From Escherichia coli (lineage in GTDB: Bacteria; Pseudomonadota; Gammaproteobacteria; Enterobacterales; Enterobacteriaceae): a DNA stretch of 64,000 nt. The DNA is taken from NCBI RefSeq assembly GCF_050920415.1, contig NZ_CP169310.1; one strand, given 5' to 3'. Positions 6,001 through 9,000 of the stretch are shown piece after piece. Each line of letters opens with the position of its first letter. The first letter of the stretch is position 1. A program made the position numbers.

Positions 6001-9000
6001 AAGAGTCAATCATTTGATAATTAATCTTAGCGCAAATCTGCGATCTGATAGACTTCGCTGCTTTCTCTTCTTCCAACGGCAATAACGAGTAAAACGACTT
6101 TCTCATCAATGACTTGATATACAAGTCTGTAGCCAGATGAACGAAGTTTGATTTTATAACGATCAGCATGACCATGTAATCGGGCTGCAGGTACACGTGG
6201 ATTTTCCAGCCGTTCTGACAGTTTCTTTTTGAATTGTTCACGGATGGTGTGGCCGAGTTTCTGCCATTCCTTCAGTGCTCTGCGGTCAAAAGCCAGTTCA
6301 TAGGTCATCCAGGCTAACCTTCACAATTTCCGGTTTTTTCATGCGCTCATCAGCAACAGCGTTTAACTCAGCATCTTCAGCGAGTTCTCGATAGTAGGCG
6401 TAAAGTTTTGGTGGAACGCAATAGAACGCCGGTTCGTTTCGGTTCAGGATCGCAACAGCGTCCCCTTCACCTTCAGCTACGGTTCCCATAGGATTTTTTT
6501 TTAGGTCAGTAATACTGGCCGCTGTGGTTGTCAGGATTTGATAACTCATAAGCCCTGTATGAACGCCTCCCCGTTTGCAAGGCTTCCGTTGTCTGACATC
6601 GACGAGTAGTTGCAGCTCTGTATCCGGCCTTATTGCAGCCAGAGCTGCGGGCCACTATGAGATTCGCTGACCTGAGCCTTATTCTCCGTGCGGACTTGAT
6701 GTCCATGGGCCTATTCAGGTTTATCAGGTCACGGTCTTACCTGTCGTTGTCATCACATCGGCCGCCATAGCAACCTTTCAGCATTCACCCTTTTTAAGGT
6801 TTGATGTTTATCAGTCTCAGCAATTAATATGGTCTGATACTGACGTGATTCTTGTCGTATTTACGTCCGTGAGCAGCTATTGCCCACACTGTTCGTGCCA
6901 GCTTGTTTGCCATGGCGACGATTGCCACACTGGCCGGACGACGTTTTTTCAGTTCGGTTATCCACGGGCCTGGTTCTCTGGTCAGTAATGCTGCCGCCCT
7001 TGCTCCGTGGATAAACAATGTCCGGAGGTAGGGATCACCACGTTTACTTATCCCCAGCAGGCGGATTTTTCCTCCTGAGCCAGTCTGTCTGGGCACCAGA
7101 CCAACATAAGCCGCGAACTCTCGCCCTGATTTAAATGCAGATGCTTCCCCCATGGTGACCACCTCTGCCGTCGCAATAAGTGGTCCAATGCAGGGAATAT
7201 CCAGCAACCGTCTACAGGTCTCATTCTGCCTGGCCACACTGGTAAGCTGTTTTTCGATATCATCTATCAGTGAGTCCATCTCACTCAGTCTGTTGTACTG
7301 GTCTTCCAGCACCGTAATGAGATACGGTGGAAGTCTCTCTTTCATCCGCTCCAGTGCTTCAGGGAACTCCCGCTCCATCGCTGCCCGACCTTTGTGAATG
7401 CTTTCACCAAACTCCAGTAACGTCCCGTGCAGGGCATTAATTTGTGCGGTCCGGAACTTCACCAGTTGCCTGCGGGTCCGGTGCAGAACAAGAACTGACT
7501 GCTGTTCTTCTGTTTTGACGGCGATTTCTTTACCTGGCTGCTGAACTGCCATCCAGATAGCCCTGGCATCCATCACATCATTCTTATTGCCCATGACAAA
7601 TGCCTTAACGAAGCGGGCCTGCAACAATCGGACTTTATGACCCAGTTTTGTCAGTTCCCGGGCCCAGTGCTGAGAGCCTCCACAGGCTTTCATGCCAATC
7701 AGGCAAGGTTCGCGGTTACTAAAGAACGTCAGAAAATCTCTGCTGCGTAGTTGCTTATCCACCACTTCACCTGTGTGCTCATTGATGAAGTGAACCTGAA
7801 TCAGATGTTTTGCGATATCAACGCCAACCGGTGTATATTTTATTTGTTGAGTCTCCAGTCTGAGGGAGTCTTATGCATCCCGTATTGGACTATGATGCCG
7901 CAAATCTGCGAAGCTCCACACCTTCCTGTATTTTCCCGCTATCTACCTTTGTGCTACGGATTTAATGGTGGGAGGCGTTCATCTCATTCTCCGTTTGTCT
8001 TATTGTCATAATAGCATCTTTAAAAGCACTCTTAAAAGTGCTTGCATTGAAAAAAACATCAGAACAGGTGAGATATATCTCTTTCCGACATCGCCTTAAA
8101 ACACTTTGAATCACGTTCTGAACATTTTCTCCATTTCGTTGCAATCAGTCCTGGCTTAACGGCTGTTAACGCCGTTCAACGCTTTTTAACGGCCTTGTTG
8201 CTGTGATCTGCTGTCATGATCCAGATAGCAGTTCAATCTTGATCAAAACTTCCGCGAGGCAACAATTGTTTTGTGAATACCCTCTAAAACGTGCAGTATC
8301 GCATTCTAAGCGATTTTTTCCATTTCACATGTTTTCCTCATGGTTATGTAAATAGACCCGTTTTAGTTCCATGCATTTTTTGAGAACCCGGCCAAATAAT
8401 GGTGAAGTCGGTATTCCTCCGGTGTCATATTGTTCAGTGATTCATGCGGGCGTTCATAGTTATATTCTGATAACCATTTCTCCGTAATTTCCTGTACTTC
8501 ATTCAGCGTTCTGAACAGATAAAAATCGAGTATTTCTGTACGGTATGTCCTGTTAAAACGCTCAATGAAAGCGTTCTGCGTCGGCTTACCCGGCTGGATG
8601 AACTCCATTTTTACTGCGTGTATCTCTGCCCATTCAGCCAGCGCCAGAGAGATAAATTCCGGACCATTATCCATGCGTAGCATGACCGGATAACCGCGGT
8701 TTGCCGCGATCCTGTCAAGTACACGGACCACTCGCAGAGCTGACAGATTCAGATCGATTTCAATCGATAACGCCTCACGATTAAAGTCATCAACGACATT
8801 GAACGTGCGAAAACGACGGCCACAGGCCAGCGCATCATGCATAAAATCGACAGACCAGCTCTGGTTCAGCGCTTCTGGCGTAGCCAGTGGCGAGGGATTA
8901 CGCACCGGAAACCGTTGTTTGCCTTTACGGCGAAAATTCAGCTTCAGCAGACAATAAATACGATGGATCCTGTTGTGATTCCACGGGTATCCTTGCCGTC

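Follow-up and report, generated by a model that had tools for sequence, protein, structure and literature searches.

INTRODUCTION

A type II toxin–antitoxin (TA) pair consists of a stable RNase toxin together with a labile antitoxin, which doubles as the repressor of the operon. RelE/StbE and HigB toxins cleave ribosome-bound mRNA, PemK/Kid toxins free RNA, and VapC toxins initiator tRNA, and in the hok/sok type I system an antisense RNA restrains a membrane-damaging peptide. When a cell loses the plasmid, or the segment bearing such a module, it keeps the toxin without the antitoxin and stops growing. Here we describe a 64,000-nt stretch of DNA from Escherichia coli (NCBI RefSeq assembly GCF_050920415.1, contig NZ_CP169310.1), hereafter called the window, which carries the five TA modules stbDE, pemIK, higBA, vapBC and hok/sok.

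IncF plasmids carry a mean of 2.54 (range 0–5) of eight screened addiction systems, and the mean reaches up to 4.5 for FII:FIA:FIB types (PMC4585273). On the Shigella virulence plasmid pINV, TA systems act both globally and locally against insertion sequence (IS)-mediated deletion, as demonstrated for MvpAT/VapBC (Pilla et al. 2017, PMC5629016). The plasmid to which we assign the window, the five TA families, the presence of multiple TA systems on multi-replicon IncF plasmids, and the guarding by TA systems against IS-mediated deletion are all already published. Our analysis indicates that the window is very probably part of the known mosaic IncFIA/FIB/FII virulence plasmid pCFSAN004180G, or of a near-identical copy, with five classical addiction modules whose number most likely results from the assembly of the plasmid.

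RESULTS

Source plasmid and its TA modules

A megablast search against PLSDB and RefSeq revealed that the window is >99.99% identical to pCFSAN004180G (NZ_CP012500.1). Over 50 kb, the two sequences differ by 1 single-nucleotide polymorphism (SNP) and 2 small indels and by nothing else. The differing sites (window positions 4656, 10187 and 12590, comprising the 1 SNP and the two indels, of which one removes 3 nt and the other adds 1 nt to a G-run) all fall within the IS- and pseudogene-rich part of the window, and the window may derive from a different version of the assembly or from a near-clonal sibling. The window spans the origin of the NZ_CP012500.1 record, its first ~3.9 kb corresponding to the end of the record, and a window position equals the record position plus ~3896–3898. 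pCFSAN004180G is a circular, conjugative IncFIA/FIB/FII plasmid of 225,292 bp from the Shiga toxin-producing E. coli (STEC) O168:H8 strain 09-00049, isolated from lettuce. It was published among four >200 kb virulence plasmids from STEC that are ehxA-positive and negative for the locus of enterocyte effacement (PMC5009963), and close relatives of it are found in Escherichia cryptic clade I strains (PMC10100065).

The genes of the five modules are as follows.

6027-6308, minus strand: relE/stbE toxin gene, 93 aa (PF05016 and TIGR02385 matches, RelE alignment)
6298-6549, minus strand: stbD-type antitoxin gene, 83 aa (weak Phd/YefM match, similarity to the DnaT N-terminus and YafN, source names of its cluster)
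12941-13273, minus strand: pemK/kid toxin gene, 110 aa, MazF-fold endoribonuclease, TTG start, R67H (identity to Kid)
13275-13532, minus strand: pemI/kis antitoxin gene, 85 aa, AbrB/MazE fold (Pfam MazE_antitoxin, 29.9 bits; RefSeq name PemI)
22936-23217, minus strand: higA antitoxin gene, 93 aa, HTH_3, downstream of the toxin gene (TIGR02607, Pfam HTH_3)
23226-23522, minus strand: higB toxin gene, 93 aa (TTG at 23507) or 98 aa (ATG at 23522), Rts1-type ribosome-dependent mRNA endonuclease (Pfam HigB-like_toxin)
42080-42229, minus strand: hok-family (srnB-like) type I toxin gene, 49 aa (Pfam HOK_GEF; RefSeq 'Hok/Gef family protein')
42217-42374, minus strand: sok-family antisense/regulatory RNA region (full-length match to Rfam RF01794, 86.5 bits, gathering score 59)
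51822-52049, plus strand: vapB antitoxin gene, 75 aa, AbrB-type (NF040493, 112 bits)
52049-52447, plus strand: vapC toxin gene, 132 aa, PIN domain, tRNA(fMet) endonuclease (NF010285)

An initial annotation of the window had listed four TA modules. The four type II pairs lie where it placed them, their frames are open, and its family labels are essentially borne out by profiles and alignments; the fifth module, hok/sok (42080-42374), was overlooked. Its description of the first pair as relBE-like suits the toxin, a member of the RelE/StbE family, and does not suit the antitoxin, which is of the StbD type. The pairs were also described as intact, which holds for the reading frames; the leader of stbDE is broken by an IS110-family element, and pemK starts with TTG.

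Distribution of the module alleles among plasmids

The multiplicity of TA modules most likely arose by mosaic assembly, in which pemIK, hok/srnB and vapBC would belong to the IncF backbone, stbDE would be of IncX1/R485 type, and higBA would be of phage-plasmid type. In PLSDB, pemIK is present in 3835 records, stbDE in 972, and vapBC in 1173, where it nearly always lies beside traD; in the window, vapBC sits between traI and traD. The higBA allele is rare, with 25 PLSDB records, and outside the plasmid family it is found solely on non-mobilizable plasmids of ~90 kb that carry phage tail genes, where its DNA identity is 88–91%. One of these phage-plasmids, NZ_OY754373.1, carries another HigB-family pair near its higBA.

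The type II toxins retain their catalytic residues

The initial annotation had proposed that the catalytic residues of the toxins be checked. We sought inactivating substitutions at these residues by aligning all four type II toxins and found none.

PemK scores 100.8 bits against PF02452 and is identical to Kid (PDB 1M1F) at 109/110 residues, the sole change being R67H. The catalytic residues H17, R73 and D75 are identical to those of Kid. The pemI stop codon lies 1 nt ahead of the pemK start, and the PemI protein is identical in sibling plasmids.

StbE matches PF05016 (ParE_toxin, 54.4 bits, cutoff 23) and TIGR02385 (RelE_StbE, 39.9 bits, cutoff 27.9). It aligns to E. coli RelE (4V7K/4FXE) without gaps over residues 1–90, with K52, K54, R61, R81 and Y87, the catalytic residues of RelE in the RelE–ribosome structural literature, all identical. 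The toxin and antitoxin genes overlap by 11 nt. We considered and ruled out assignment of the antitoxin to RelB: it has no RelB profile match, and its best matches are Phd/YefM (16.8 bits, below the cutoff), the DnaT N-terminus and YafN, so that 'relBE' is imprecise for this pair. Its last 27 aa (residues 57–83) weakly resemble the C-terminal toxin-binding tail of RelB (E = 0.07–0.3), and source names in its cluster include 'plasmid stabilization protein' and 'RelB/StbD'.

HigB matches PF05015 (HigB-like_toxin) with 72.3 bits, and HigA matches the equivalog model TIGR02607 with 98.6 bits (cutoff 47.7). The order is toxin-first on the minus strand, with higB running from 23507 to 23226 and higA from 23217 to 22936. 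Alignment to Proteus HigB (4MCT_B) places the histidine of a KLHPLKG motif and a C-terminal D-Y-H among the conserved positions, which correspond to the catalytic H54 and D90-Y91-H92 of Proteus HigB in the HigB structural literature. Directly 3′ of higA, at 22898-22931 on the minus strand, there is a perfect 15-bp GC-rich hairpin (CATTATAGGGGGGCC...GGCCCCCCTATAATG) without a clear T-run, which may be a terminator or a recombination or IS end. The block conserved with sibling plasmids stops at 23582, ~60–75 nt upstream of higB.

VapC scores 290.6 bits against NF010285 (cutoff 143) and is identical to Shigella VapC (PDB 6SD6/3TND) at 130/132 residues. Its translation contains the complete PIN active site, D7, E42, D98 and E119, as listed in PMC8923223. 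The window alleles have R32 in VapC and A58 in VapB, which are the S. sonnei-type residues; VapC with R32 equals the S. flexneri K32 protein in toxicity and confers lower plasmid stability (Martyn et al. 2022, PMC8923223). One promoter-like site lies upstream of the module.

51755-51783, plus strand: promoter-like site TTGACA-17-CACAAT in the traI–vapB intergenic region (10/12 consensus match only)

The Hok peptide of the fifth module scores 37.3 bits against PF01848 (HOK_GEF, cutoff 22), and its gene adjoins IncFII repA; the NCBIfam Hok models stay below their own cutoffs for this 49-aa peptide. The peptide is putatively srnB-like, by its likeness to SrnB of the F plasmid.

The ratio of nonsynonymous to synonymous substitution rates (dN/dS) was computed against diverged alleles, as sibling plasmids differ by 0–2 nt per gene and are too alike to measure selection within the lineage. 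All eight type II TA genes gave values of 0.02–0.36, and all four toxin genes gave values <= 0.08 (0.03 for vapC; 0.03–0.06 for pemK; 0.04–0.05 for higB; 0.08 for relE/stbE, relative to the IncX1-type allele), with 0.05–0.07 for higA. This shows that all eight genes are under strong purifying selection, a long-term constraint on the families that is silent on this lineage. Given the near-identity to tested systems (Kid, Shigella VapBC), each module most likely still kills on plasmid loss.

The stbDE leader and the pemK start are altered

Two of the four type II modules bear lineage-specific changes that, judged from sequence, probably lower their expression: the IS110-family element in the stbDE leader and the TTG start of pemK. 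The features concerned are as follows.

6555-7990, minus strand: IS110-family insertion sequence, transposase gene at 6824-7843 (empty-site reconstruction, related IS copies, Pfam DEDD_Tnp_IS110 and Transposase_20)
7990-8100, minus strand: native stbDE upstream region, displaced by 1.43 kb (alignment to the IncX1-type stbDE upstream sequence)
8035-8008, minus strand: stbDE promoter-like site TTAAGA-16-TATTAT with an upstream TG (promoter scan)
13533-13600, minus strand: pemIK upstream region with the palindrome GTTATATTTAAATATAAC (conserved with mainstream pemIK alleles, alignment of 5)

Homology to ordinary stbDE alleles ends 7–8 nt upstream of the stbD ATG, and the element is inserted 5–8 nt upstream of this ATG. 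In IS-free stbDE plasmids, the sequences corresponding to window positions 6500-6556 and 7989-8100 are contiguous, and the interval 6555-7990 is matched by related IS110-family copies found elsewhere. Reconstruction of the empty site gives ...AAACGGAG|GGCTTATG. The pair thus no longer lies directly behind its own autoregulated promoter and operator: the element splits the native upstream region (7990-8100) from the ATG at 6549, and it interrupts the GGAGGG Shine-Dalgarno (SD) sequence of stbDE, of which CAGGG remains. The element and stbDE have the same orientation, so that the TA promoter now faces the IS110-family transposase gene. No intrinsic terminator is predicted on the stbDE strand across the element, and transcripts begun at the native promoter or in the IS could run on into stbDE.

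The element contains a 268-nt non-coding region (6556-6823), which lies 3′ of the transposase gene and before stbD. Its predicted folding is better than that of shuffled controls (z = -2.9; 1/200 shuffles as good), and the structured region might correspond to the guide-RNA-encoding ends known from IS110/IS1111 elements.

In pemK, the canonical ATG start is replaced by TTG in both the window and the related plasmid p1RM9088, and the two also have H67 in common, whereas 5 comparator pemK alleles (2 IncF, 2 IncL/M and 1 Salmonella) have ATG and R67. By this comparison, ATG→TTG and R67H are derived changes confined to this plasmid group. The AGGAGG SD of pemK is kept, 9 nt upstream of the TTG; with this strong SD, and at 1 nt past the pemI stop, the TTG is a workable start. 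We rejected 'PemK-mt' as a label of the TTG variant, since ATG alleles bear the same name. The promoter function of 13533-13600 is suggested solely by its conservation.

Intactness of TA modules does not exceed that of cargo genes

The initial annotation had further held that most transposases around the TA modules are decayed and that the retention of the modules amid IS erosion suggests selection for maintenance of the segment. We counted intact and decayed genes from the RefSeq annotation of the whole plasmid.

Transposase/IS coding sequences in the window: 7 intact, 10 pseudogenes
Transposase/IS coding sequences, whole plasmid: ~18 intact, ~47 pseudogenised
TA modules, whole plasmid: 7 apparently intact (5 in the window), 1 decayed (yacB remnant)
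NZ_CP012500.1 84196-84412, outside the window: second hok/mok locus of the plasmid
NZ_CP012500.1 100765-101324, outside the window: RelE/ParE-CopG pair
NZ_CP012500.1 127612-127749, outside the window: yacB toxin remnant, cut short by an IS1414 that is itself intact

A majority of the window transposase genes (10/17) are indeed pseudogenes, but with 7 intact the contrast is weak. The intact fraction is higher for TA modules than for IS genes (Fisher P = 0.04 in the window and 0.002 plasmid-wide), but it is not higher than for the non-IS cargo genes of the same IS-rich stretch (P = 0.16–0.55). We therefore reject a special preservation of TA modules, the edge holding against IS genes and not against cargo genes. 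Five of the seven apparently intact TA modules lie within the window, which makes up 28% of the plasmid (binomial P = 0.02, in a test that is post hoc).

TA modules are not exempt from IS damage, as seen in the stbDE leader, in yacB and in the pemK of sibling plasmids. Nine PLSDB plasmids share both the stbDE-plus-IS allele and the pemIK allele of the window; seven of them carry higBA, and the more distant p1RM9088 and CP057155 lack both higBA and the sequence around it. In AP025742 (NZ_AP025742.1; human isolate Escherichia sp. 10290), the IS21-like element ISEc62, 2.1 kb in length, splits pemK past codon 19–20, parting H17 from the rest of PemK and leaving pemI intact. Because ISEc62 splits the gene in this sibling plasmid, TA modules can be disrupted by IS and loss of a toxin is tolerated. 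The annotation there lists the downstream pemK remnant as a PemK/MazF toxin of 104 aa, its N-terminus being chimeric. The same insertion is probably present in AP025752, whose matched span is almost equal in length to that of AP025742.

NZ_AP025742.1 13260-16089: ISEc62-split pemK region, equivalent to window 13207-13219

These data bear on the alternative that the TA modules are kept by selection and hold together the IS-rich segment with its cargo (type VI secretion, PqaA and serine protease autotransporter), in which case IS–IS deletions of TA-bearing stretches would kill the cell, as for MvpAT on pINV. The modules are indeed spaced ~every 7–10 kb through the IS-rich part and adjoin cargo genes, they exceed IS genes in intactness, stbDE and pemIK are retained in 9/9 related plasmids despite differing IS content, and local protection is experimentally documented for the VapBC homologue (PMC5629016). 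Yet the modules have no edge over cargo genes, the splitting of pemK by ISEc62 was not followed by loss of neighbouring genes, the yacB remnant on the same plasmid indicates that TA loss is tolerated, and the higBA block is missing from two relatives; moreover, the siblings are too alike for selection to be detected, and the enrichment of TA modules in the window was noticed post hoc. We consider this alternative unlikely, and the step from TA retention amid IS erosion to selection for the segment is not supported. A local anti-deletion role of the window TA modules is plausible and is not required. Open TA frames among broken IS copies would follow from the short length of the genes, from the lethality of antitoxin loss, and from nested IS insertion, the main mode of IS decay, being free of cost to the plasmid.

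Other features of the window

Cargo annotated as intact near the TA modules comprises, among others, the terminal part of a type VI secretion cluster (tssB, tssC), a UilS-family acyl-homoserine lactone lactonase, a PqaA-family protein, and an S6-family autotransporter protease of 1272 aa (of the serine protease autotransporters of Enterobacteriaceae, SPATE). By annotation, these cargo regions are the following.

1-3300: cargo region near TA modules
14192-15052: cargo region near TA modules
16569-18056: cargo region near TA modules
27584-31402: cargo region near TA modules

Five Rfam families match above their gathering scores: isrN, within an IS-rich stretch; CopA, of IncFII copy control; and three antisense RNAs.

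9067-9209: isrN
41322-41410: CopA
44190-44372: AS-pc02
48815-48891: AS-traI
59604-59689: AS-traG

Eight annotated hypothetical proteins (133–346 aa) in the window have no Pfam match at E <= 0.01, and a ninth (11800-12309) has a sub-threshold match to an AvrRpt2-like cysteine protease. A Pfam scan of these 9 hypothetical window open reading frames revealed no additional TA modules. The eight lie in the following intervals.

10523-11143: hypothetical protein(s) without Pfam match
27085-27486: hypothetical protein(s) without Pfam match
37596-39379: hypothetical protein(s) without Pfam match
42485-42949: hypothetical protein(s) without Pfam match
45990-46421: hypothetical protein(s) without Pfam match
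54656-56100: hypothetical protein(s) without Pfam match

DISCUSSION

The reading that we favour, a known mosaic IncF virulence plasmid carrying five classical addiction modules that accumulated through plasmid assembly, has several points against it. Since the IS separates it from its promoter and has removed part of its SD, stbDE may be poorly expressed or silent; the weak start and R67H of pemK could reduce killing; and VapC carries R32, the less stabilising allele. A simple promoter scan, which is insensitive, found no sigma-70 match upstream of pemI or of higB; we regard this null result as uninformative, given that functional alleles show full conservation of the region upstream of pemIK. 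Finally, the suggested origins of stbDE (IncX1) and higBA (phage-plasmid) are drawn from the present-day locations of the closest alleles.

Some of these points could be taken further, to mean that one or more type II modules are already attenuated or non-functional and too young for frame breaks, with stbDE silenced by the IS and pemK under-translated, so that the window would be a snapshot of early decay. The shortened SD of stbDE and the structured 268-nt IS 3′ end placed before stbD are in keeping with this, as are the derived pemK changes, limited to this plasmid group, and the tolerance of pemK inactivation in siblings. However, the IS is co-oriented with stbDE and lacks a predicted intrinsic terminator, which leaves read-through possible, the TTG behind its AGGAGG is workable, and the catalytic residues are intact; both changes also arose before p1RM9088 branched off, and no frame has been broken in the meantime. 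On balance, early decay seems to us quite unlikely.

A related and very unlikely proposal is that addiction modules in this lineage are under selection for attenuation and not for maintenance, because three independent changes agree in direction: the IS110-family element in the stbDE leader, the TTG start of pemK and the weaker R32 of VapC. If it were true, the plasmid would be reducing its dose of toxin, and the IS110-family element might be hitch-hiking on the TA promoter, with the transposase gene behind the TA promoter and stbDE behind the IS. Retention mainly for other functions, such as abortive-infection phage defence or the exclusion of competing plasmids without the antitoxins, is the least probable explanation: TA systems can act in phage defence and the higBA allele is shared with phage-plasmids, but sequence does not separate such roles from classical addiction, the alleles are textbook plasmid-stability systems (Kid, MvpAT/VapBC, StbDE, SrnB/Hok), and no further defence genes were seen adjacent to the modules.

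In practice, counting open TA frames gives too high a figure for fully functional addiction systems, because stbDE has an IS in its leader, and pemK has a weakened start and is disrupted by an IS in clinical siblings. The details should be useful for stability studies of virulence plasmids of hybrids of STEC and enterotoxigenic E. coli and of cryptic clade I, and have little import beyond annotation.

Each module has a well-described counterpart. The hok/sok locus resembles hok/sok of R1 and srnB/srnC of F, with a Hok/Gef peptide and a full-length sok match beside the IncFII replicon and no notable difference. The window pemIK corresponds to PemIK of R100 and Kis-Kid (parD) of R1 in its toxin (109/110 identical to Kid), its 85-aa antitoxin, its tight gene junction and an upstream palindrome as in mainstream alleles, and differs in the TTG start and R67H. 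The window stbDE is 96% identical in DNA to the IncX1-type stbDE and, like StbDE of the IncX1 plasmid R485 and its relatives, is an overlapping antitoxin–toxin pair with the RelE catalytic residues kept, but it has a 1.43-kb IS110-family element in its leader, between promoter and start codon. The window higBA shares with HigBA of the Proteus plasmid Rts1 the toxin-first order, the HigB fold family, the KLHPLKG histidine, the C-terminal D-Y-H and a helix-turn-helix antitoxin, although the window HigB is identical to Rts1 HigB at only about half of the aligned positions. The window vapBC matches VapBC/MvpAT of Shigella pINV and of IncF plasmids such as pSLT in VapC identity (130/132), in the active site, and in the traD–traI position found on ~1170 plasmids; it differs by G124D and T128I in VapC, and by R32 with VapB A58 from the S. 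flexneri K32 allele.

Taken as a whole, the plasmid is best compared with Shigella pINV and its multi-TA maintenance. On the present plasmid, no GmvAT or CcdAB is annotated, and stbDE, pemIK and higBA are present; the two resemble each other as IncF-type virulence plasmids of large size that are rich in IS and carry several TA modules, VapBC among them.

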